A DNA stretch of 57,503 nucleotides from positions 1 through 57,503 of the IMG/VR virus record IMGVR_UViG_3300042445_000578; one strand, written 5' to 3'. This document shows, piece by piece, positions 33,420 to 47,811 of this stretch. A program made the translations under genes and the position numbers. The stretch is from a virus (lineage: Duplodnaviria > Caudoviricetes). How positions within the stretch are numbered: position 1 is the stretch's first letter; every line of letters begins with the position of its first letter. The notes below the pieces were generated by a model that was not told where the DNA came from, searched no databases, and saw only the letters and a program-made list of their open reading frames with translations.

Positions 33420-34910
33420 TTAGTAATATGCTACTTTGCGTCTAAAGTAAACAGGATCGTCTACTTCATCCGTTTGTAATCTTAAAAAGCCGCCTTTTCT
33501 AAAGCGTATCAGGGCTTGAGTCGCAGAGTCAACCAAGTCATCGTGATCCGAATTAGGAAATGCAGCCATCTCTTCCATCACCTCTTCTGCCCATCGCGTA
33601 CGAGGACACCATATCTTGCCAGAAGCAAACAAGTCTGATACGGAGTTTACTCTCGAAATCTTATCATTACCACGGGTTGGTGTAAATTCTTGTACAGGAA
33701 TACCCATCCTTCTTAATTCAAAAACTAGCGGCGCACCAGAGGCTTTTGCCTCAACAATGAACGCATCGGGTTCCCATTCACGGTACATTTGCAAAGCTCG
33801 TTCTTTTAATTCAGGAAACTCTAGCCGTTCTTTATAAGCATCCAAAAGGATCACGTTCACATCGTCTGGATTCTCATCTTTATAAAAGACTCCCCATGTC
33901 GTGCAAGCAGAATAGTCTGACCGTTCATTCTTAGTAAACGCTGTGTCCCATGACTGGATAATAAATTCGCATGGTGGGGGCGTCTCATGTTCCCATTCCT
34001 TCCACCACTCGCGTTTAACAATCGCACCCGCTTCAGATGTCGGTTGCTGCTGGTACTGCGCAGACCATTTTGAAACGGGAAGTTCGTTACGTAATTTAAC
34101 CAACTCTTCATACGACCAAAACTCTGGCCATAAAGGTTTCTCGCTCGGTAAAATGGCTGGTAAATCAATTTGCTCCCATTCATCTCCATCCCTTTCAATC
34201 GCGCTTTGTAAAATCCTGCCCGTTAAATCTCGTTTACCCCAACGAGTCATAACGATCACAATTGCACCGCCTGGTTGCAAACGTTGGCGTGGACCAGATG
34301 AATACCATTCATAAACCTTGTCGTACACCTCAGGGTTACTAGCTGCTAAGGCTGCCTCTTGCTCCGAGTGCGGATCGTCAATAACCAATAAATCAGCACC
34401 TTTACCTGTAACAGTACCGCCAACACCAATAGCAAAATACTCACCGTTCCCGCTAGTAGACCAACGACCAGCAGCTTTACTATCAGACCTAAGATTGACA
34501 TTTGGAAACACCTTTGAATAAACATCACCATCCACCAAGTTACGTACCTTACGACCAAAGCCAACCGCTAGTTCGGCTGTGTTAGAACACTGAATGATCT
34601 TCTTATTAGGGAATCTACCTAGGAACCAAGCTGGCAATAAATACGAGGCAAACTCTGACTTTGTGTGTCGCGGAGGCATATTAATGATCAGCCGCTTAAT
34701 CTTCCCAGCTGCTATGTCCTCAAACTTCTTAGCCATCAAAGCGTGATGCCTGCCATGAATGAACCCAGGCCACATGACCTTAACAAAGTCCATAAAACTG
34801 ACTTGCGCTTTTTCCCTGGTCACAGCATCTGAATACGCCTGTGCCATTGCAAGTAAAGACTCACGCTCGCCCTCAGGCAGCTTATCTATGAGTTCTTCTA
34901 ATTTACTCAA
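33420..34910 (-). CDS. terL: Terminase large subunit
   Basis: INMPPRHTKS Walker A, LLVIDDP Walker B, QSWDTAF and HDDLVDS nuclease motifs. Confidence 0.92.
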   Translation of the reverse strand: MSKLEELIDKLPEGERESLLAMAQAYSDAVTREKAQVSFMDFVKVMWPGFIHGRHHALMAKKFEDIAAGKIKRLIINMPPRHTKSEFASYLLPAWFLGRFPNKKIIQCSNTAELAVGFGRKVRNLVDGDVYSKVFPNVNLRSDSKAAGRWSTSGNGEYFAIGVGGTVTGKGADLLVIDDPHSEQEAALAASNPEVYDKVYEWYSSGPRQRLQPGGAIVIVMTRWGKRDLTGRILQSAIERDGDEWEQIDLPAILPSEKPLWPEFWSYEELVKLRNELPVSKWSAQYQQQPTSEAGAIVKREWWKEWEHETPPPCEFIIQSWDTAFTKNERSDYSACTTWGVFYKDENPDDVNVILLDAYKERLEFPELKERALQMYREWEPDAFIVEAKASGAPLVFELRRMGIPVQEFTPTRGNDKISRVNSVSDLFASGKIWCPRTRWAEEVMEEMAAFPNSDHDDLVDSATQALIRFRKGGFLRLQTDEVDDPVYFRRKVAYY

Positions 34911-35127
34911 TTGTTCTCACCCTTAAACCCGCAGGCCGAATCGATCGCGCTCTTCTAGGCACTCCCTTACATACTCCAATCTCAACGAGTAATTTCATTT
35001 TTCTAGCCACATTGCTACGACTCTTCTCGCCCGTTACCCGCATAACGTCATCAATGCTAGGACCAAACCCAAAGGTCTTCCACCACTCATCTATCACAAT
35101 AAAGATCTCTTTCTGGGCGGGTGTCAT
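34903..35127 (-). CDS. LexA-type winged-HTH DNA-binding protein (no peptidase domain)
   Basis: MTPAQKEIF..I......G.GPSIDDV......S.S.V......L...G....P.RARSI. Confidence 0.65.
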   Translation of the reverse strand: MTPAQKEIFIVIDEWWKTFGFGPSIDDVMRVTGEKSRSNVARKMKLLVEIGVCKGVPRRARSIRPAGLRVRTIE

Positions 35128-35388
35128 CTATTTGCCTCGTACCACTTAATCTTGTCCTCAAATGTCAACTTATCAAACTTAATAAAAACATTCCTTATAA
35201 ACCTTTGCCATTGCTTCCTAGCTAACTCTGCCTCAGGTGTGTGCTTACTCACTCTGGATACCTCTTCGTCATGATCATCACCGCCTCATCGCGCAATAAC
35301 ATTGTTAATAACTTCTGCTTCTCTTCTTCCGTCATCGACTGGATCGCCAACAACATTTCTTCATATGTCCAAATTTTCATATACCCCC

Positions 35389-36288
35389 CTATGCCTTTTC
35401 TACCCAAAAAGTGACGGGGGGTGTTTCTGTAGCGCTATTACCCTCGTCCTGGGAAATTTTTATACCCCCCTCCCCCACTCTAACAGATGTTAGAGTTGCA
35501 GGGTCTTGATTTTGAAGGGAAATTTCTAAAGTTGGTGATTGAGTGAGTGGATTACTATGCAATGAGGCCACTGTGCAATCGTCAAATTTTGGGGGTGATA
35601 CCCCTGTCGGTGCGGAGAAATCGCCATCGGAAACCCCTACGCCACCCACATCAATCGCATCTACATCCATAACACCATCATCTGATACATTAACTGGGCT
35701 TGCATCATCATTAACCTGTGCTTCGCCAGTCAACTCTGCCAGTAATGACTCCGCAGAATACTCAGCAATCTTTTTATCCCCACTAGAATTCATAGCCAGT
35801 GATAACGATTTGATTAGCTTCTCTCGCATGGCTTCGCTACTGTCTGTCTTGATATGCTCTACTCGATTGGTGAAGAGTGATACCTCTGTTATCTTGCCAA
35901 GCAACTCCAGTGCCTTCAACTGTTGTGCGTGTGGGACATCATCATCCAATGTCTTTTGAGTTAACTTATGGATTATGTGCATCCTCAAGTGAGCAGGCGT
36001 TTGATATTTATTCGCTTCCATTGCCACCTTGAAGGCATCTACTTGGGTTTGTATTGCGTCATTCTTTAATAGCTTCTGCCCATTGCGTGATTGTGTGTGT
36101 GGTTTGCCTGTTGAGTTATGACTATTCCTGTATGCCTGAGCCTTGCTCTCGCCCTTGGCTATCTCCTCTGCGAACTTCATCTGCTTTGGGGTTAGCTTGG
36201 TTGTCTTACTGCTTGCACCCAGTAGCAGAGTATTCATAGGCATTGCCTTGAGTCCTTCAGCTATTTGTTTGCGTGTTAGTTTGGTCAT
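35389..36288 (-). CDS. Terminase small subunit-like protein
   Basis: LTPKQMKFAEEI..G....QAY HTH, LKALELLGK; upstream of terL. Confidence 0.65.
   Translation of the reverse strand: MTKLTRKQIAEGLKAMPMNTLLLGASSKTTKLTPKQMKFAEEIAKGESKAQAYRNSHNSTGKPHTQSRNGQKLLKNDAIQTQVDAFKVAMEANKYQTPAHLRMHIIHKLTQKTLDDDVPHAQQLKALELLGKITEVSLFTNRVEHIKTDSSEAMREKLIKSLSLAMNSSGDKKIAEYSAESLLAELTGEAQVNDDASPVNVSDDGVMDVDAIDVGGVGVSDGDFSAPTGVSPPKFDDCTVASLHSNPLTQSPTLEISLQNQDPATLTSVRVGEGGIKISQDEGNSATETPPVTFWVEKA
35477..35496. repeat. Palindrome ACTCTAAC-agat-GTTAGAGT (copy 2 of 4)
   Basis: Perfect inverted repeat. Confidence 0.85.
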
Positions 36289-36422
36289 AGGTATTTAATG
36301 AGGATTTAGTAGTAGTGATAATAGGACAAGACGATAGCTATGTGCAACTGGTGTCTGTCTATTGGATATCTTTGGTATCTCTCTCTGTATGAGTTTGACT
36401 CACTGGACTGTATCGCTTCGCT

Positions 36423-36442
36423 ACTCTAACAAGCGTTAGAGT
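36423..36442. repeat. Palindrome ACTCTAAC-aagc-GTTAGAGT (copy 3 of 4)
   Basis: Perfect inverted repeat in the divergent intergenic region. Confidence 0.85.
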
Positions 36443-36576
36443 GCAATTTAGGCGTGTTTTAGAGCCATGCTTTCCCTTTTTATGCCCAGTTATCCGCAAG
36501 CAAGCCCTTCCTGAGCTGTATCAAATGCCTTGGAAGCCTTTGTTTATATAGAGTGAAAATATTTGTTTAAAAGGTG

Positions 36577-36606
36577 TTGACAAGTCAATACAGATTTATT
36601 GACAAT
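36577..36606 (+). promoter_or_regulatory. Putative early sigma70 promoter
   Basis: TTGACA (36577)-N18-GACAAT with AT-rich upstream sequence; a second TTGACA at 36599. Confidence 0.5.
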
Positions 36607-36648
36607 GAAGTCTGTTGTATCGGTTTAATTAAATAAAAGGGGAATTAA

Positions 36649-36867
36649 ATGAAAGACGAACAAGTGTTAATACAAGCAGTGCGTGTCGTAGCTAATGATA
36701 GATACGATAAGGGTTGGTCTGTGATTGTTGAGTCTTGGACTGATGGCGATATTCTTGAAGTGTTATCAGAGTGCCAGTTTGATTTGTTTAAGACTGTTGA
36801 AGAGCTACAGTCCTATGTTGATGCTTACCTAGACAAGCAAGACGATATTGAATCAACTGCGTTTTAA
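36649..36867 (+). CDS. Small acidic early protein
   Basis: AAGGGG RBS; 72 aa. Confidence 0.7.
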   Translation: MKDEQVLIQAVRVVANDRYDKGWSVIVESWTDGDILEVLSECQFDLFKTVEELQSYVDAYLDKQDDIESTAF

Positions 36868-36884
36868 CCAAAGGGGAAATACAT

Positions 36885-37148
36885 ATGAAAGACTTAGAGA
36901 AAACAATACGAGTAGCTGATAGATTCATGGCAATCACAACTCAAGACTTACCACAAGACCTAGCAGTAGATATCGCTATTCGTTTAGCCTACTGCCACAT
37001 GGATACACCATTGGACTTGGATGCCATGTTAGATACTGATGACCTATTCTCATTCAAGCATGATGTTGTTGGTATCTATAACCATTGGGATAACGATAGC
37101 AAGAAGCTGACTGGATGCTTCATGCCACGATTCGCCCAGTCAATCTGA
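36885..37148 (+). CDS. Early protein (DUF6874-like)
   Basis: PLDLDAML..DD.F.F.HDV.GI..H.D....L..CF.PRFA. Confidence 0.6.
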   Translation: MKDLEKTIRVADRFMAITTQDLPQDLAVDIAIRLAYCHMDTPLDLDAMLDTDDLFSFKHDVVGIYNHWDNDSKKLTGCFMPRFAQSI

Positions 37149-37191
37149 TGATGGCTTGAGTAGCCGAAACAGTCGTAAGACTGTCATTGAC
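37139..37191 (+). ncRNA. Type I hammerhead ribozyme 1
   Basis: GTCAAT-CTGATGA-T-GGCT(TGAGT)AGCC-GAAA-CAGTC(GTAA)GACTG-TC^ATTGAC; all three stems pair; predicted cleavage after C37185 (GUC). Confidence 0.88.
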
Positions 37192-37212
37192 ATAACAAAG
37201 GGGAAAATTATT

Positions 37213-37437
37213 ATGACAAGCAATTATCACAATGCCAGTATGGTTGATGTAGCGACTGCTATCGTTGACCGATTGATTGACAACTACGAAGGCAAAGGCG
37301 AATTCATCACTGAATTCTATGAGCTATCTGAACTGATTGGCAAAGCTATTGCCAACTCTAACCACTTCAATCGCATTGAAGAAATCGCCATGGAAAATGG
37401 TGTTGTTGAATCTGACTACTTTGAAGGGGAAGAATAA
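37213..37437 (+). CDS. Small acidic early protein
   Basis: AAGGGG RBS before ATG 37213. Confidence 0.65.
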   Translation: MTSNYHNASMVDVATAIVDRLIDNYEGKGEFITEFYELSELIGKAIANSNHFNRIEEIAMENGVVESDYFEGEE

Positions 37438-37712
37438 TGGCTAACTGGAAACATGAAATAGATGTTGCTGACTTGTATGCCAAGTATGAGTCTGCTGATA
37501 TTACCGATAGCGAAATGATTAACAGTCTGCACAAGGTGTTTACTGCCTTCATTGATGCTAACCCACAACTCAACGACATTGTTGACTTCTACCGATTCTC
37601 TGATGCCGTTGATGAGCTACTAATCGCTGATGACATTGAAGAAGCTGACTATGCCTTGCAGTCAATCTATGACTTCGCTGATGACAATCGTATTTGGATT
37701 AAAACCTTCTAA
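37437..37712 (+). CDS. Small acidic early protein
   Basis: 91 aa; IYDFADDNRIWI. Confidence 0.7.
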   Translation: MANWKHEIDVADLYAKYESADITDSEMINSLHKVFTAFIDANPQLNDIVDFYRFSDAVDELLIADDIEEADYALQSIYDFADDNRIWIKTF

Positions 37713-37722
37713 GGGGATGATG

Positions 37723-37887
37723 ATGAAACACTTTATTTACTTTTTAAACCTTGCTATTTTTGGTCTGTTTATGCTCTCTATCTATGTGGTATCAGAGAAT
37801 CCCGCACCTTTGTATATCTTTACTTTAATTGCATCAACTGTTGGTCTGTGCCTGATGTTTGCCTTGCACTGCGAAACTTCAGACTAA
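37723..37887 (+). CDS. Small 2-TM membrane protein
   Basis: AAGGGG RBS; two hydrophobic helices. Confidence 0.6.
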   Translation: MKHFIYFLNLAIFGLFMLSIYVVSENPAPLYIFTLIASTVGLCLMFALHCETSD

Positions 37888-37948
37888 CTGATGATGGGGT
37901 GAATCCCCGAAACTGGGTGCATAGCTACAAGTGCATCCAGTCTTAGTC
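37882..37948 (+). ncRNA. Type I hammerhead ribozyme 2
   Basis: GACTAA-CTGATGA-T-GGGG(TGAAT)CCCC-GAAA-CTGGGTGCAT(AGCTACAA)GTGCATCCAG-TC^TTAGTC; predicted cleavage after C37942 (GUC). Confidence 0.88.
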
Positions 37949-37959
37949 AACTGCTAGGA
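37946..37959 (+). promoter_or_regulatory. GTCAACTGCTAGGA leader/RBS element (putative sRNA target)
   Basis: 14-nt perfect complement of the candidate sRNA; includes the AGGA(G) RBS of the ORF at 37967. Confidence 0.7.
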
Positions 37960-37966
37960 GATACAA

Positions 37967-38155
37967 ATGATTCAGTGGTATATCAATTCAAAGCCTGTGC
38001 CTAAAGCTATTGCTAGGGTTCACTTGGAAAACGCCATGCCTTATCGGACTGCAAGAGAGATTGCATCCGCTATGACTGGTGCATTGAAAAAGGATGAATT
38101 CTTTGTCAAGGTATGTGCTGACTATGGCGTGCATTACGCTAACTTAACTCATTAA
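37967..38155 (+). CDS. Early hypothetical protein
   Basis: AGGAG RBS; 62 aa. Confidence 0.65.
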   Translation: MIQWYINSKPVPKAIARVHLENAMPYRTAREIASAMTGALKKDEFFVKVCADYGVHYANLTH

Positions 38156-38165
38156 GGGGAAACTA

Positions 38166-38345
38166 ATGAAATTTATGATTGAAATCCGCACCGATAACTC
38201 AGCGTATGAGCAGTCTTTTTATGATGAGATTATTGCCAACTTGCAACTGGTTATCAGGATGGTTGATTCTCAGTTTAAGGTAGGTGTCATTCACGATACC
38301 AATGGCAACAAGGTAGGCAAATTTTTTACAGTGGAAGGGGATTAA
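38166..38345 (+). CDS. Early hypothetical protein
   Basis: AAGGGG RBS; MKFMIEIRTDNSAY...DTNGNKVG (59 aa, not in ORF track). Confidence 0.65.
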   Translation: MKFMIEIRTDNSAYEQSFYDEIIANLQLVIRMVDSQFKVGVIHDTNGNKVGKFFTVEGD

Positions 38346-38346
38346 C

Positions 38347-38916
38347 ATGGGATGGACTGGTTCACAAAAGTTTGACTCACTGCCAACAAAGGACTGGTTA
38401 GTAAAGGAATTCACTAACGAGTCTGATACTCACAAGTGGGAATTAACGGATGTATCCATGCGTGGCAACACTGCGTATGGCATCCACAAGGTGCAAGACA
38501 AAGCTACTGGGATTATCTTGGCTGAAGCCATCATTATCCTGACTCGCAAAGAGGATGGTTGGCTTTACTTCAAGGAAATGGGGGAAACTGTGCATCCCTA
38601 CTACTATGATGCACCGAAGAAGCTACTGGATAAACTGGATGCTCTCTTTCCACCATTTAATGACAATGCCAAGGCATGGCGTGATGCCTGTCGTGCAAAA
38701 GCCACCAAGAAGAAATCTGCCAAGCTAGTTATTGGGGATGTGGTCAAGTTTGCCAAGCCAATGAGCTTTGGGCAATTCTCTGAGGATACCTTTACCTTTG
38801 AAAGCTACTTTGGTAAGGATTCTTTCAGAGCCACCAATGGTGTGCTATGTCGCATTACCAAGTGGAAGCAGAGGGATTTTGAGGTTTTATCAACAAAAGG
38901 GGAAAGCAATGAATGA
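38347..38916 (+). CDS. Early protein (DUF6927-like)
   Basis: MGW.., KEMGETVHPYYYDAP..LL, AKAWR..C. Confidence 0.6.
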   Translation: MGWTGSQKFDSLPTKDWLVKEFTNESDTHKWELTDVSMRGNTAYGIHKVQDKATGIILAEAIIILTRKEDGWLYFKEMGETVHPYYYDAPKKLLDKLDALFPPFNDNAKAWRDACRAKATKKKSAKLVIGDVVKFAKPMSFGQFSEDTFTFESYFGKDSFRATNGVLCRITKWKQRDFEVLSTKGESNE

Positions 38917-39175
38917 ATTATCAAAGATGAATGAATTGGAGATTGAGGATCACTGGACTAATGAAGCCAGTAGTCTATTACTAGGCAAAAAGATAACTAG
39001 GGTTCGCTATGTAAGCCATAGAGAAGCAGAAGACATGGATTGGACTTCAAGACCTGTTGCATTTATGTTGGAAACTGGTATTTGGTTTTTCGCATCCATG
39101 GATGATGAAGGCAATGATGGTGGTGCGTTGTTTACTTCGCATCCTGAGAAATCAGTCCTTCCAGTGTTGAGGTAA
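38909..39175 (+). CDS. Early hypothetical protein
   Basis: AAGGGG RBS; SMDDEGNDGGALF. Confidence 0.65.
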   Translation: MNELSKMNELEIEDHWTNEASSLLLGKKITRVRYVSHREAEDMDWTSRPVAFMLETGIWFFASMDDEGNDGGALFTSHPEKSVLPVLR

Positions 39176-39177
39176 TT

Positions 39178-39387
39178 ATGAAAACAACGATTAAGGGGTT
39201 TGATTTGTCTGTCGTGGAATTGGATAACGACTCTGTTGCAATCAATTTTGATAAGGATGGTGCAACTGGTGGTTATATCAATATCAAGATGGATGATGAT
39301 GGTGTGGTGGTAGATGTGTTTAATGCCTGTGGGGACTGTATTAGCTCTACATGGTCTTTTTATAACGAACTTATGCAAGGGGAATAA
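39178..39387 (+). CDS. Small acidic early protein
   Basis: GAGG RBS; DDDGVVVDVF. Confidence 0.6.
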   Translation: MKTTIKGFDLSVVELDNDSVAINFDKDGATGGYINIKMDDDGVVVDVFNACGDCISSTWSFYNELMQGE

Positions 39388-39388
39388 C

Positions 39389-39724
39389 ATGGAATTGAAT
39401 CAATTTACTGGGACTGAAAACTATCATAGGTCATGTATGTTTGTGCCTAAGATGGTGCATACGGATGGCGTTGACTACTTCTGCTCTGAAGCCAGTGCCT
39501 ACTGGTTTTTGGATATTGTGGCAACTGAAGTATTTCCATTGCAAGAGGTGGATTACTTCTTGTCAATCAAGATGGTGGTGGCTGATGGCAAAGCCACAAT
39601 CACTGTGGAAGATGGGGACTGCAAGGTTTTAAAGACTAAGAACATTGAATTCACTGACTGCCCTGAAGGGGAGTATGAATTCTTTTTGACTGACAATGTT
39701 TTGATGCTAACTAGCGAATACTAA
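39389..39724 (+). CDS. Early protein (DUF6876-like)
   Basis: QFTGTENY, TDGV, AYWFLD, IEFTD.P, LML.SEY. Confidence 0.6.
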   Translation: MELNQFTGTENYHRSCMFVPKMVHTDGVDYFCSEASAYWFLDIVATEVFPLQEVDYFLSIKMVVADGKATITVEDGDCKVLKTKNIEFTDCPEGEYEFFLTDNVLMLTSEY

Positions 39725-39734
39725 GGGGGACACC

Positions 39735-40181
39735 ATGGGATTAGATATGTATTTAACTGCCAAGCGTTATGTTTGGAATTACAAAGATGAGGACAAAGCC
39801 TTGCAAGACCAACTGGATGATGTGATGAAAGATGATTTATCTGATGGCATGAGAGTCAAAGAAGTAGCGGTAGATGCTTTCTATTGGCGTAAAGCTAACC
39901 ATATTCACAAGTGGTTTGTGGATAACTGCCAAGGGGGTGAGGATGATTGCCAAGAATACTGGGTTGAAGCTAAACAACTGGTGCGACTCAAAGACCTGTG
40001 CGAGTCTGTCTTACTGCAAAAGGATGTGGGCTTATTGCCTACTGCGGATGGCTTCTTCTTTGGATCAACTGACTATGACGATTGGTATTGGTCTGAGATT
40101 GAAGAAACTGTTAAGGGACTTGAGAAAGTATTGAAACTGGATACTGCCAAGTGGGACTTCTACTATCGTGCTTCATGGTGA
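39735..40181 (+). CDS. Conserved phage early protein (MGLDMYL family)
   Basis: MGLDMYL, YWRKANHIHKWF, GFFFGS, FYYRASW. Confidence 0.65.
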   Translation: MGLDMYLTAKRYVWNYKDEDKALQDQLDDVMKDDLSDGMRVKEVAVDAFYWRKANHIHKWFVDNCQGGEDDCQEYWVEAKQLVRLKDLCESVLLQKDVGLLPTADGFFFGSTDYDDWYWSEIEETVKGLEKVLKLDTAKWDFYYRASW

Positions 40182-40186
40182 ATAAC

Positions 40187-40444
40187 ATGGGCAAATACAC
40201 TGTATATGCCTATGATGCCGAGATTGAACTGGGTGGGGAAACCTACTCAGTTTTACTGGGCATTGAGGAAGAAGGACACCCAAGCAATGCCTATGAGGAC
40301 TCATGGTGCGATAACAAGATTTACTACTACATGACTGATGCTGAACTAGCTGAACTCAAGAGTGGTGATGAGCTTGATGAGGGGACTATCTTGTTATCCA
40401 TTGATAAAGACAATCCGACTATCTATGAGGTGGAATATGAGTAA
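40187..40444 (+). CDS. Small acidic early protein
   Basis: Very D/E-rich ORF in operon. Confidence 0.6.
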   Translation: MGKYTVYAYDAEIELGGETYSVLLGIEEEGHPSNAYEDSWCDNKIYYYMTDAELAELKSGDELDEGTILLSIDKDNPTIYEVEYE

Positions 40445-40619
40445 TTTTTACATTGCGTATGCAACATCCAAGGTTTATCACCAAATAAAGGTGGTGGCTG
40501 AATCAGAAGAAGATGCAAAGCGTTTGATTGCTGAAGGCAATTACTATGCTTGGGATGAACTGGATAATGAAGATTTTCAAATACAAGAAGTAATTTTTGA
40601 TGGAGTGCATGATGCCTAA
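40437..40619 (+). CDS. Small acidic protein, DpnD/PcfM-like motif family
   Basis: VVAESEEDAKRL. Confidence 0.55.
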   Translation: MSNFYIAYATSKVYHQIKVVAESEEDAKRLIAEGNYYAWDELDNEDFQIQEVIFDGVHDA

Positions 40620-40797
40620 ATATAGCGTGTTAATGACCACTGCTGACTATGTGGAAGTGGAAGCAACTGATCCAAGGGATGCTGAAATGGTGGCTTGGGG
40701 TATGTATAAGGAAGGCGATATACGACCTGAACACCCTGAGTTTGTTTGTGAAGAAGCCGATTTAATTGAAGGGGATGATGATGGCAATGACCTATAA
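40609..40797 (+). CDS. Small acidic protein, DpnD/PcfM-like motif family
   Basis: MPKYSV..VEVEATDPRDAEMVA. Confidence 0.55.
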   Translation: MMPKYSVLMTTADYVEVEATDPRDAEMVAWGMYKEGDIRPEHPEFVCEEADLIEGDDDGNDL

Positions 40798-41071
40798 ATC
40801 AAATAGAAGTGAAAACCAATGGGACATATGGCATAGCAATGTCAATGGGGATGAAATACTGCATACATTCGCAACTGAAGAAGAAGCAGATTACTACTTG
40901 AAAACTGGTAAAAAACTCATAAGCAAAGCCATGGTGGAAGGATGGCTAGGGTCTGACAACATGAGTGTTGATGATTTTCTTGACCTATTAACTGAAATCA
41001 TCAATGAGGATTATCCATTGGATATCTTCAGAGCTGATGTTTTGGAATTTATGGAGATGGAAAATGCCTAG
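40781..41071 (+). CDS. Small acidic early protein
   Basis: AAGGGG RBS; FATEEEA. Confidence 0.6.
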   Translation: MAMTYKSNRSENQWDIWHSNVNGDEILHTFATEEEADYYLKTGKKLISKAMVEGWLGSDNMSVDDFLDLLTEIINEDYPLDIFRADVLEFMEMENA

Positions 41072-41237
41072 TTTTACTGCGAGTTTTTCAAGTGAAATAA
41101 GAGTATTGATTGATGCTGACACCATAGAACAAGCAGAAGAAATTGCTAGGGAAATGGAATTGAATCATTCAGATTTACAGAAAAACGGAGAACACTGGGG
41201 AACAGTGTTTTACGACATTAACGAATTTGAGGAGTGA
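41064..41237 (+). CDS. Small acidic protein, DpnD/PcfM-like motif family
   Basis: IDADTIEQAEEIA. Confidence 0.55.
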   Translation: MPSFTASFSSEIRVLIDADTIEQAEEIAREMELNHSDLQKNGEHWGTVFYDINEFEE

Positions 41238-41386
41238 TGATGCCGAAGTTTGAGATTACCTACAAGGAAGTAATTGAAGCTGAAAGCGAAGAGCAAGCGA
41301 TTGAGTGGTTATTTGTATATCTAGCTGATTGCTTGAGGGATGATGATGTATCTGTATTTAACTTTTTTGAACTTAAAGGGGAATGA
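41237..41386 (+). CDS. Small acidic protein, DpnD/PcfM-like motif family
   Basis: MPKFEITYKEVIEAESEEQAIEW (not in ORF track); GGAG RBS. Confidence 0.55.
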   Translation: MMPKFEITYKEVIEAESEEQAIEWLFVYLADCLRDDDVSVFNFFELKGE

Positions 41387-41388
41387 CT

Positions 41389-41943
41389 ATGCCTAACTGG
41401 TGCGATAACAACTTGTATTTAGAACACAATGATCCTGAGATGATTAAGAAGGCGAAAGAAGCATGGGAGTCTGGGAAGTTTTTAGCGACTTTTGTGCCTG
41501 AGCCTGATTACACAAAGGTAAAAGTAAAGCCTACTTTTGATAACAGTCATATTACTGGTAAGCCAGTGGCTGACTTTGTTAATCCTGACCAAGCATGGTG
41601 GGATTGGCGAGTGCAGAACTGGGGGACTAAATGGGACATTGGATATGATGCTGACCGAAGCAATCATGCTCAAGGATGCGATAAAACCATGTTTGTTTAC
41701 TTTGACTCTGCTTGGAGTCCACCAACTGATGCCTATGCCAAATTAGCTGAACTAGGGTTTTTGGTGAAAGCATTTTATTACGAAGGTGGATGTGCCTTCT
41801 GCGGTTCATGGATAGATGGTGTTGAGGACTTCCACAACATTGAAGAACAGACTCAGGCATGGGTAAAAGAGAATATTCCTAAATACATTGATGATGAGAT
41901 GGATATATCCATGCAATATGAATTAGATGAGGAGTGGGAATAA
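41389..41943 (+). CDS. DUF1281/YubB-like ferredoxin-fold protein
   Basis: MPNWC.N.L, WWDWRVQNWGTKWD, FDSAWSPP, YYEGG..F.G. Confidence 0.7.
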   Translation: MPNWCDNNLYLEHNDPEMIKKAKEAWESGKFLATFVPEPDYTKVKVKPTFDNSHITGKPVADFVNPDQAWWDWRVQNWGTKWDIGYDADRSNHAQGCDKTMFVYFDSAWSPPTDAYAKLAELGFLVKAFYYEGGCAFCGSWIDGVEDFHNIEEQTQAWVKENIPKYIDDEMDISMQYELDEEWE

Positions 41944-42233
41944 TGGGTGCGGTGGTATTTATGAATGTGGGACTGGGAAGCAGTGCCAAGAAAGCCTTTG
42001 ATAGTCTAGTTTACGAAGCTAGGTATCAGCATGGGCATGGTGGATACACTGGGACTATTGCAGAAAAGAACTCTTTTGTAATGATCCTATTAGCTGAAGG
42101 ACTGGATGCCTTCCAGTATGCCGAACAACTGATTGATGATGATGACAAAAGGGTATGCGATAAATGGGGGGATGCTGGGTGCATCCATATTAAAGATGAT
42201 GAATACTTATTCTTTGGATGGGCTTCAGAATGA
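41943..42233 (+). CDS. Early hypothetical protein
   Basis: GHGGYTGTIAEK, DKWG.AGC, FFGWASE. Confidence 0.6.
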   Translation: MGAVVFMNVGLGSSAKKAFDSLVYEARYQHGHGGYTGTIAEKNSFVMILLAEGLDAFQYAEQLIDDDDKRVCDKWGDAGCIHIKDDEYLFFGWASE

Positions 42234-42448
42234 CTAGAGATGAAATGATTAAAGAATTGATTGATGATGATATCAATGGGTGGTATGACAGAGATGATAA
42301 GGATGCCTTCTTCTCATACATCATGCTTAATGGGTGGACTGGATACAAGACTCAATCAGATGAAGAGCTAACGGAAGAGTGCTTCAATAGGGGAATCCTA
42401 GATGATACGCATCCATCCTTTGATCCAGTGCTAAAGAATGAGGTGTGA
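42230..42448 (+). CDS. Small acidic early protein
   Basis: GW.GY...SDEEL..E. Confidence 0.55.
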   Translation: MTRDEMIKELIDDDINGWYDRDDKDAFFSYIMLNGWTGYKTQSDEELTEECFNRGILDDTHPSFDPVLKNEV

Positions 42449-42774
42449 TGATGAGTAAATGCTCTTTTTGCGACCATGATGACGGATACCTGTGCTTTTA
42501 CTGTGAGGATTACTTGAAGGATACAGTGAAGGATGTTATCCACAAATTCAAGAATGAAATCTTGGATACTGGGGACTGGTGGTATGCAGTTAATACTGCC
42601 CACGATACCTATGATGTCAATGTGCATTGCTTGGATGATGAAAACTGGGAAAAGCCTGATGCCATATTCAGCATCAATCTGTATAGGCTTGACCTAGGCG
42701 ATACAAGTAGCTATCACTCTAGGGTGCAGTATGACCTTGATCCAATGACTAGAAAGGAAATTAGACTGCTATGA
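42448..42774 (+). CDS. Early protein with N-terminal Cys pairs
   Basis: CSFC...CFYC; GAGG RBS. Confidence 0.55.
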   Translation: MMSKCSFCDHDDGYLCFYCEDYLKDTVKDVIHKFKNEILDTGDWWYAVNTAHDTYDVNVHCLDDENWEKPDAIFSINLYRLDLGDTSSYHSRVQYDLDPMTRKEIRLL

Positions 42775-42944
42775 GAAGATACGAAGTTAAGATTTGCACC
42801 AGTGCGACTACTGTTGTGGTGGTGGATGCCAGTGATGCGGATGAAGCCTGTGAAATGGCGATTGACCTAATCAATGAAGATGATATTACCTTTGATGGCG
42901 ATTGGGATATTGTGGATGTTTGTGAAGTAGATCCAAGGGACTGA
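42771..42944 (+). CDS. Small acidic protein, DpnD/PcfM-like motif family
   Basis: MRRYEV..VVVDASDADEACEMA (not in ORF track). Confidence 0.55.
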   Translation: MRRYEVKICTSATTVVVVDASDADEACEMAIDLINEDDITFDGDWDIVDVCEVDPRD

Positions 42945-42945
42945 C

Positions 42946-43227
42946 ATGAATTTAAGACTAGCAAAAGGCAAAGTGCCGATTGATACTGGGGATGGGTATG
43001 TGTTTATACCCTTCCCTGATGAAGAGGAGTTTTGCCAACTGTATAACAACTATACCCCTATGGATAGACGGAAGCGATACTGGAAGGTGTTGTCTGAAAG
43101 AATCCAAGGTAAAACACTGAAGGACAGTGGATTACCTCATGGGATTAGTAAACAAAGGGTTAGGGAGATTGAAGCTAAGTTTATGAGATTGATCACAACG
43201 GCTTACTTTTGTAAACCAAAGGTTTGA
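42946..43227 (+). CDS. Sigma-70 region-4-like HTH protein
   Basis: R..GKTLKD.G..HGISKQRVREIEAK. Confidence 0.6.
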   Translation: MNLRLAKGKVPIDTGDGYVFIPFPDEEEFCQLYNNYTPMDRRKRYWKVLSERIQGKTLKDSGLPHGISKQRVREIEAKFMRLITTAYFCKPKV

Positions 43228-47489: not shown

Positions 47490-47811
47490 GTCAGATTCCT
47501 GGTGGTGAAGACACACCTAGCCTACCTAGATGTGCCTTCAACCGTTGATTCCTGTATGGAGCCTACAGCACCCGACAGTCTTTCGTAGAGTCGGCACTAT
47601 CTTCGCCACCGACATTTGCACTGTTACATCTACTTACCCCCAGTAGTGCTTGAGTAATGATCGCTGGTGTGGTTTTGCCCCGTCCAATCACTACTTCAAT
47701 TGTTAGACGTGATTGACAAAGTGGCAATAACGCATGCCAATAAATGGCACGGTAAGTATTCACATTGTCACTTGGGAATTGTTTCAGTCCCTAAGCACGT
47801 CTAGCAGTTGA
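47490..47811 (-). other. Structured non-coding region (long leader, ncRNA or origin)
   Basis: 15-bp hairpin 47506-47540, alternative GTCGG/CCGAC helices 47572-47613, 16-bp imperfect inverted repeat 47696-47711/47796-47811 with nested stems. Confidence 0.55.

Follow-up and report, generated by a model that had tools for sequence, protein, structure and literature searches.

What could a putative self-cleaving RNA accomplish between two small phage genes when the stop codon of the first gene forms part of its catalytic core? This question arises at positions 37139-37191 of an IMG/VR virus record, the whole of which was analysed (57,503 bases, hereafter the window; 43% G+C; completeness approx. 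90% by CheckV). The genes for the small and large terminase subunits lie on the minus strand at 33420-36288, and a plus-strand operon of small genes, divergent from them, begins near 36.6 kb. Two of its genes border the element:

36885..37148, plus strand: upstream gene, 87 aa, DUF6874 / phrog_12453
37213..37437, plus strand: downstream gene encoding a 74-aa acidic protein, the first of three small genes between the two ribozymes described below

The product of the upstream gene matches Pfam DUF6874 (E 4e-19, model positions 3-84 of 84) and the PHROG family phrog_12453; judging from this match over the full length of the model, the open reading frame is a real gene. The 74-aa protein has no Pfam or PHROG family match, and an Atlas search with it gave a sole lead (0.75), a hypothetical protein. 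The only Rfam family reported in the window is RF02932 (Betaproteobacteria-1 RNA), present at full length at 47570-47694 on the minus strand and scoring 97.4 bits, where the gathering threshold is 49.4.

Read directly from the sequence, positions 37139-37191 of the plus strand make up a complete type I hammerhead motif, referred to here as HH1, whose parts (given with the flanking positions and the leader that follows) are arranged as listed.

37138, plus strand: invariant flanking A, kept in 71 of 71 distinct rows of the family alignment described below
37139-37144, plus strand: stem I 5' strand, GUCAAU
37145-37151, plus strand: core C3-A9, CUGAUGA
37152, plus strand: extra U after A9
37153-56, plus strand: stem II 5' strand, GGCU, with G10.1-C11.1 as the closing pair
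37157-61, plus strand: loop II, UGAGU, 5 nt (family consensus U-N-A-N-U)
37162-65, plus strand: stem II 3' strand, AGCC
37166-68, plus strand: core G12-A13-A14, invariant in 71 of 71 family rows
37169-37174, plus strand: stem III 5' strand, A37169 + CAGUC, in which A15.1 pairs with U16.1
37175-78, plus strand: stem III loop, the tetraloop GUAA
37179-84, plus strand: stem III 3' strand, GACUG + U, making stem III 6 bp overall
37185..37186, plus strand: C17 and the predicted scissile bond, positioned by the hammerhead consensus
37186-91, plus strand: stem I 3' strand, AUUGAC
37192, plus strand: invariant flanking A, kept in 71 of 71 family rows
37193..37212, plus strand: remainder of the leader with the Shine-Dalgarno-like AAAGGGGAAA, preceding ATG 37213

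All 16 of the 16 pairs are Watson-Crick, with none mispaired beside the core, and the topology is that of type I, in which stem I is open and stems II and III are closed by loops. The core positions listed for hammerhead membership in Perreault et al. 2011 (PMC3088659), namely C3 U4 G5 A6 N7 G8 A9, G12 A13 A14 A15.1 and U16.1 H17, are all found in HH1. The minimum-energy fold of the 53-mer alone is the hammerhead secondary structure (-15.6 kcal/mol, z -2.2). The final codons of the upstream gene, CAG-UCA-AUC followed by UGA, supply the invariant A, the 5' strand of stem I and U4-G5-A6, the stop codon being U37146-G37147-A37148. The next ATG is at 37213, and a cut after 37185 is predicted to leave it a 27-nt leader (from 37186) with AAAGGGGAAA as the ribosome-binding site. 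The earlier note had described the complete core with stems I, II and III and the GUAA loop, the UGA inside CUGAUGA with the 5' strand of stem I as coding sequence, the extra U between A9 and G10.1 and the leader of 27 nt; each of these was found where it had been placed, the coding sequence being that of the DUF6874 gene.

A descriptor consisting of CUGANGA, an optional one-base insertion, a stem II closed by G..C, GAA, a stem III closed by A..U, H17 and stem I finds exactly two type I hammerheads on both strands of the window, at 37139-37191 and 37882-37948. When the window was shuffled 300 times with its dinucleotides preserved, the loose descriptor matched once in total (0.0033 per shuffle) and the observed stem quality was not reached (0 matches). 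A chance origin of HH1 is excluded. The second element is as follows.

37882-37948, plus strand: HH2, second hammerhead, found by the descriptor scan and by the covariance model R1 (61.8 bits), of whose seed it is not a member

HH2 is built from stem I GACUAA/UUAGUC, an extra U, stem II GGGG/CCCC with loop UGAAU, and an 11-bp stem III, and its predicted cut falls after C37942, 24 nt before the next ATG at 37967. The TAA stop (37885-37887) of a small membrane-like open reading frame (approx. 55 aa) forms the last 3 nt of the 5' strand of its stem I. Folded alone, HH2 has the hammerhead secondary structure at minimum energy; in its 136-nt context, the minimum-energy fold breaks stem I, and the 3' strand of stem I pairs with the AGGAG ribosome-binding region. 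The two copies, starting at 37139 and 37882, lie on the same plus strand of a terminase-bearing virus contig and enclose three small open reading frames, which is the arrangement of clustered phage hammerheads.

HH1 and HH2 belong to a larger family. A search pattern of 25 letters common to both (the core with the extra U, G10.1, the U-G-A-N-U loop, C11.1 and GAAA), from which the stems were left out, has 52 matching places in 50 IMG/VR contigs. Hammerheads were confirmed at 51 of these 52 places, 49 by the strict descriptor and two more by a covariance model; the remaining match, in L003, fails both and was rejected. Among the confirmed copies, the length is 6 bp for stem I and 4 bp for stem II without exception, and stem III ranges from 5 to 11 bp. 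The covariance model, R1, was seeded with 14 copies of equal length, chosen by requiring stem I pairing. Run without filters, R1 recovers just these two members of the window, HH1 at 75.7 bits and the unseeded HH2, the next place reaching 13 bits. In the window and the 50 IMG/VR loci together (489,287 bases), R1 gives 95 matches at E<=0.01, which reduce to 71 distinct rows and include many copies that lack the extra U or have C or G at N7.

In the alignment of these 71 rows, 99.6% of the cells are standard pairs. Double changes occur in 13 of 16 pairs, across all three stems, and the seed alignment behaves alike; this count of pairs changed on both sides is non-discriminating in the alignment of 71 rows, being reached by 157 of 500 column shuffles. 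The number of double-change cells is a different measure: 360 were counted vs 106 +/- 8 in column shuffles, and none of 500 shuffles reached the observed value, with the reservation that the alignment was fitted to R1 and that the covariation of stem I is affected by the choice of seed copies on stem I pairing. When partners are slid by one to three columns, pairing falls to 30-40%. No double change is seen in the remaining three pairs, namely G10.1-C11.1, A15.1-U16.1 and the invariant G-C pair at the outer end of stem I. The complete core, the second copy, the covarying family and the custom model score of HH1 lend strong support to its original identification as a hammerhead.

Sequence variation in the family is confined to positions at which the hammerhead rules allow it. 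Across the 71 rows, N7 varies among U (55), C (12) and G (4), and H17 between C (63) and A (8), without ever being G; 53 rows have U as the extra nucleotide following A9, 1 has A and 17 have none; and U4 is replaced by C in 2 rows. An A on both flanks of stem I, together with the outer G-C pair of this stem, is found in all 71 of 71. These flanking adenosines and the U-N-A-N-U consensus of loop II hint at a possible tertiary contact of stem I with loop II, of the kind that hammerheads need for fast cleavage at cellular Mg2+. When loop II position 4 is compared with the second nucleotide after stem I, a trend emerges (G-U 12, U-A 16, A-A 22) but no clean rule, and no clean covariation between loop II and the flanks of stem I is seen across the family rows.

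The copies tend to be clustered. Among 37 non-redundant loci, 20 have multiple copies (two to five), and all 34 of the 34 adjacent pairs in these 20 loci lie on one strand, with a median spacing of 638 nt. Copies from one genome share their stem I sequence in 35 of 54 pairs, their stem II in 9 of 54 and their stem III in 10 of 54; between genomes, the corresponding numbers are 237, 219 and 61 of 2431. Owing to this within-genome identity of stem I (e.g., in L002, L011, L001 and L050), the ends produced by cleavage would be interchangeable between copies, and the released mRNAs might share a 5'-terminal hexamer as a common handle. The dominant stem I types are GGUUAA (18) and GCACAU (13). In copies of the latter type, the base after the predicted cut opens an AUG (C|AUGUGC) followed by a frame of 69-118 codons, for example at these places:

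L025:7159-7215, GCACAU-type copy with AUG at the cut
L001:4063-4119, GCACAU-type copy with AUG at the cut
L050:2764-2820, GCACAU-type copy with AUG at the cut
L002:7477-7530, GCACAU-type copy with AUG at the cut

Cleavage of such copies could yield leaderless messages that begin with 5'-AUG, although in G+C-rich DNA the frame may be due to chance.

Judged with the 25-letter pattern, the family looks essentially viral. One genome per species was searched for 185,579 prokaryotic species, and 21 matches were found, compared with approx. 17 expected by chance in 596 Gb for 18 fixed bases (by arithmetic); one is a convincing hammerhead and two are marginal at 22-23 bits. The convincing member (L054, 3432-3504, minus strand, 53.8 bits) is on a contig of a Candidatus Taylorbacteria bin, and this 13-kb contig may be viral. 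By large terminase, the nearest cultured phages are the Pelagibacter phages HTVC027P and HTVC023P together with 023Pt_psg01 and DSL-LC04 (53-58% identity). R1 has no match in these four genomes, an empty result that shows little, and blastn of window positions 35000-40000 against cultured phages gave no match. A 57-mer blastn match in a gene of Pseudomonas phage GP100 (E = 0.1) was dismissed as chance, R1 having no match there.

A further relative is the contig L045, which is syntenic with the window at 35.5-43 kb at roughly 45-70% amino-acid identity. Its one hammerhead precedes the same AACUGCUAGGAGAUA leader as HH2 and differs from it in the sequences of stems I, II and III; it can be regarded as the positional counterpart of HH2. 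The leader AACUGCUAGGAG(A) recurs before several small genes of this phage group (window 37950-37960; several places in L045), one exact copy and four with one mismatch being present in the window vs 0.9 expected. For the DUF6874 protein, a single-sequence query found no close relatives and a two-sequence alignment found four. At the DUF6874 homologue of L045, a 9-bp hairpin (AAGCCCA-loop-UGGGUUU) lies approx. 6 nt past the stop codon, in place of a hammerhead. The same hairpin is found in L077-L079, and the L077 version shows two compensatory changes. Its positions are:

L045, 4540-4585 and 5150-5200, minus strand: AAGCCCA-loop-UGGGUUU hairpin, a few nt after stop codons
L077-L080, about 1745-1800: AAGCCCA-loop-UGGGUUU hairpin, behind the DUF6874 gene

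R1 has no match at the DUF6874 junction of the four homologous loci, three of which are on independent contigs, while L080 derives from the contig of L045. HH1 is not conserved at this junction, where the relatives have a plain structured hairpin instead.

The position of the hammerheads relative to genes was analysed in 74 non-redundant contexts by taking the longest open frame that ends between -60 and +15 of C3, a heuristic rather than a gene prediction; in 73 contexts, this frame has at least 40 codons. The upstream stop codons are distributed as follows.

-52 from C3: 1 context
-38 from C3: 1 context
-15 from C3: 2 contexts
-13 from C3: 2 contexts
-12 from C3: 8 contexts
-11 from C3: 3 contexts
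-9 from C3: 7 contexts
-8 from C3: 13 contexts
-3 from C3: 17 contexts
+1 from C3: 11 contexts (among them HH1)
+11 from C3: 6 contexts
+12 from C3: 2 contexts

HH2 has its stop at -3. Upstream frames end between -15 and +12 of C3 in 71 of 73 contexts; 36 of the 73 stops lie within the ribozyme (in the terminal triplet of the stem I 5' strand, in UGA of the core, or in a UGA/UAA of loop II), and a further 20 include the invariant A(-7) or G(-6). The stop-codon overlap, which the earlier note had taken as special to HH1, is instead a property of the whole family. From the predicted cut to the first plausible start codon, the median distance is 25 nt (interquartile range 20-30, n = 72). The order throughout the family is a stop codon, 0-8 nt, the ribozyme, a leader of approx. 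25 nt and a start codon.

It is quite probable that HH1 is a type I hammerhead, predicted to be self-cleaving, that serves as intercistronic punctuation of a polycistronic phage mRNA. From the observed motif, family, covariation and placement, we infer that it is cleaved in vivo and that this affects expression. HH1 would be transcribed within the plus-strand operon that starts near 36.6 kb, and as soon as the 3' strand of stem I had been made, the RNA would fold and cut itself after C37185. According to a 2019 review, hammerheads cut 3' of H17 and leave a 2',3'-cyclic phosphate and a 5'-OH. The upstream piece would thus end in the cyclic phosphate and would carry the hairpins of stems II and III as well as an intact stop codon, so that termination would be unaffected. 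The downstream piece would begin with a 5'-OH and an A-rich leader carrying the ribosome-binding site of gene 37213, and cuts at both HH1 and HH2 would free a three-gene segment of approx. 757 nt (37186-37942). Each piece would gain its own ends, and hence its own stability and its own translation start. Differential stability or translation is also the consequence suggested for phage hammerhead processing in the same review, where the question is called open. The idea that cleavage unmasks the ribosome-binding site was rejected as unsupported, the change in predicted accessibility being too small: the predicted unpaired probability of the start region is 0.61 uncleaved vs 0.67 cleaved (n = 69), and 0.65 vs 0.66 for HH1. 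RiboJ-type synthetic insulators place a satellite-RNA hammerhead before a ribosome-binding site and thereby produce a defined short 5'-OH leader; these are engineered, and a natural insulating role for HH1 is an analogy only.

The reading as punctuation has precedents. In Perreault et al. 2011 (PMC3088659), clustered prophage hammerheads are described as flanking single genes or short gene blocks, and are proposed to process transcripts into mRNAs of operon length or single-gene length; in polycistronic constructs of approx. 2 kb, three clusters were cleaved in vitro and one in E. coli. HH1 and HH2 resemble the clusters described there in that they share a strand, are spaced by a few hundred nt, lie among small phage genes and have the consensus core. 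However, those clusters are from prophages, whereas the present family is from uncultivated IMG/VR phages, is unreported by Rfam 15 models, and is marked by a 6-bp open stem I with invariant A caps, by U-N-A-N-U and by the frequent extra U. The same text describes the HHphage variant of the haloarchaeal viruses HF1/HF2, which precedes a start codon by 13 nt within an early polycistronic transcript; a 5' end mapped there within three nt of the cleavage site, so that the ribozyme defines the 5' end of the mRNA. Like HH1, it lies a short distance upstream of a start codon in a polycistronic transcript; it differs in its core insertions, its adaptation to salt and its archaeal host, whereas HH1 and HH2 have a canonical core and leaders of 24-27 nt.

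The most serious alternative takes the stop codon itself as the regulatory element: a terminating ribosome would melt stem I and the core, cleavage would occur only in gaps between ribosomes, and the ratio of cut to uncut RNA would report the translation load of the upstream gene. A ribosome covers approx. 12-15 nt 3' of its A site, and one stopped at 37146-48 would, with a footprint of about this size, extend over the 5' strand of stem I, the core and some of stem II, so that the ribozyme could not be folded for as long as it stayed there. Given that 71 of 73 stops lie near C3, stem I would be covered by a terminating ribosome in practically all members, in agreement with such gating; the exact stop geometries of HH1, HH2 and the 36 plus 20 contexts with stops in the ribozyme or on A-7/G-6 agree with it as well. 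None of the family members leaves enough distance after the stop for the ribozyme to lie outside a ribosome footprint, and UAA is retained at the end of the stem I 5' strand even in copies whose operative stop is a different one. The family-wide lack of a spacer fits selection for ribosome coverage, yet it fits mere tolerance as well. Genome compaction is an equally good explanation of the overlap, because the gene packing of the operon is just as tight at junctions that lack a ribozyme (stop-to-start gaps of -1 to 17 nt) and because the plain hairpin that replaces HH1 in relatives begins equally near the stop, after approx. 6 nt. Moreover, cleavage is irreversible, so that ribosomes can merely delay the cut, and coupling of this kind was not found in the literature searched. 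Gating by translation seems unlikely, although it is plausible on geometrical grounds. It is similarly doubtful, and perhaps a little more so, that the stop codon was built in purposely, with termination resetting the hammerhead, such that a ribosome-gated ribozyme needing neither ligand nor protein fixes the linkage of the cistrons.

Far less credible is the view that HH1 is a chance or decayed look-alike of a hammerhead and inactive. One point in its favour is the silence of Rfam, against whose hammerhead models the earlier note had proposed an Infernal search. None of the families RF00163, RF00008 and RF02275-7 reaches its gathering score in the window; in the 181 nt around HH1, no hammerhead family appears even at E<=10; RF00163 gives nothing at E<=10 over the whole record; and a 2.5-kb stretch of L002 with five sister copies has no Rfam match, even at E<=10. 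RF00163 (Hammerhead_1) shares the open stem I and the core with HH1, and its model has 45 positions; its low score probably stems from the longer stem III, the 5-nt loop II and the extra U. Since the covarying family and the custom model recover HH1, the negative Rfam result is read as a limit of the Rfam models and not as evidence against the motif. The single non-consensus extra U in the core might also be seen as a sign of decay. A natural and active hammerhead of a viroid, reportedly described by De la Pena and Flores in J Biol Chem in 2001, carries one surplus nucleotide where HH1 does, between A9 and G10.1, though it is of type III and belongs to a circular plant-pathogen RNA. Against the look-alike view, every core position of HH1 matches the consensus, the expectation from shuffles is 0.003, a second copy is present in the window, and among the 71 distinct covarying relatives, 53 have the same extra U.

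It is highly improbable that the segment 37186-37942 is excised for religation, circular or joined to other pieces, through a hybrid hammerhead in which the stem I 3' strand of one copy pairs up with the body of another: the within-genome stem I identity noted above (35 of 54 pairs, vs 9 and 10 for the other stems) would make ends interchangeable in the family, but GACUAA of HH2 and AUUGAC of HH1 cross-pair at only 3 of 6 positions when counted by hand, and Perreault et al. 2011 (PMC3088659) raise spliced or circular products as a possibility and could not detect them. No more plausible is a role of the stretch as DNA, that is, as an internal sigma-70 promoter for the downstream genes, suggested by this match:

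37187-92 and 37209-14, plus strand: sigma-70-like TTGACA, 16 nt, TATTAT, 11 of 12 matches

Although this is the best promoter-like match in a scan of 36000-43200, such sites are fewer there than in shuffles (9 vs 20.3 +/- 4.0), the -10 hexamer overlaps ATG 37213 so that the transcript would start inside the gene, TTGACA is the 3' strand of stem I plus the invariant A in a family whose stem I varies freely, and the core, stem II and stem III are left unaccounted for, which makes TTGACA-16-TATTAT at 37187-37214 probably coincidental.

By its sequence and predicted structure, HH1 is thus of the known clustered phage type I hammerhead kind. What may be new is the definition of the family (6-bp stem I, A/A caps, U-N-A-N-U and often a U following A9), the failure of Rfam 15 to see it and the quantified stop-codon rule, although some of the family sequences may already figure in the supplementary alignments that accompany Perreault et al. 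2011 (PMC3088659). An overlap of phage hammerheads with stop codons was not found in the literature searched, and the term 'stop codon' is absent from the accessible parts of PMC3088659 and the 2019 review. Because Rfam 15 misses this family, annotation pipelines under-count hammerheads in viral metagenomes. The initial remark that most phage hammerheads have no known function agrees with the reviews consulted, in which the purpose of bacterial and phage hammerheads is still listed as an open question. Within this context, the locus offers a clean, compact, two-copy example together with a family of 71 sequences that follow a rigid placement rule, and this rule makes processing, stability, insulation and translation coupling open to simple reporter experiments.
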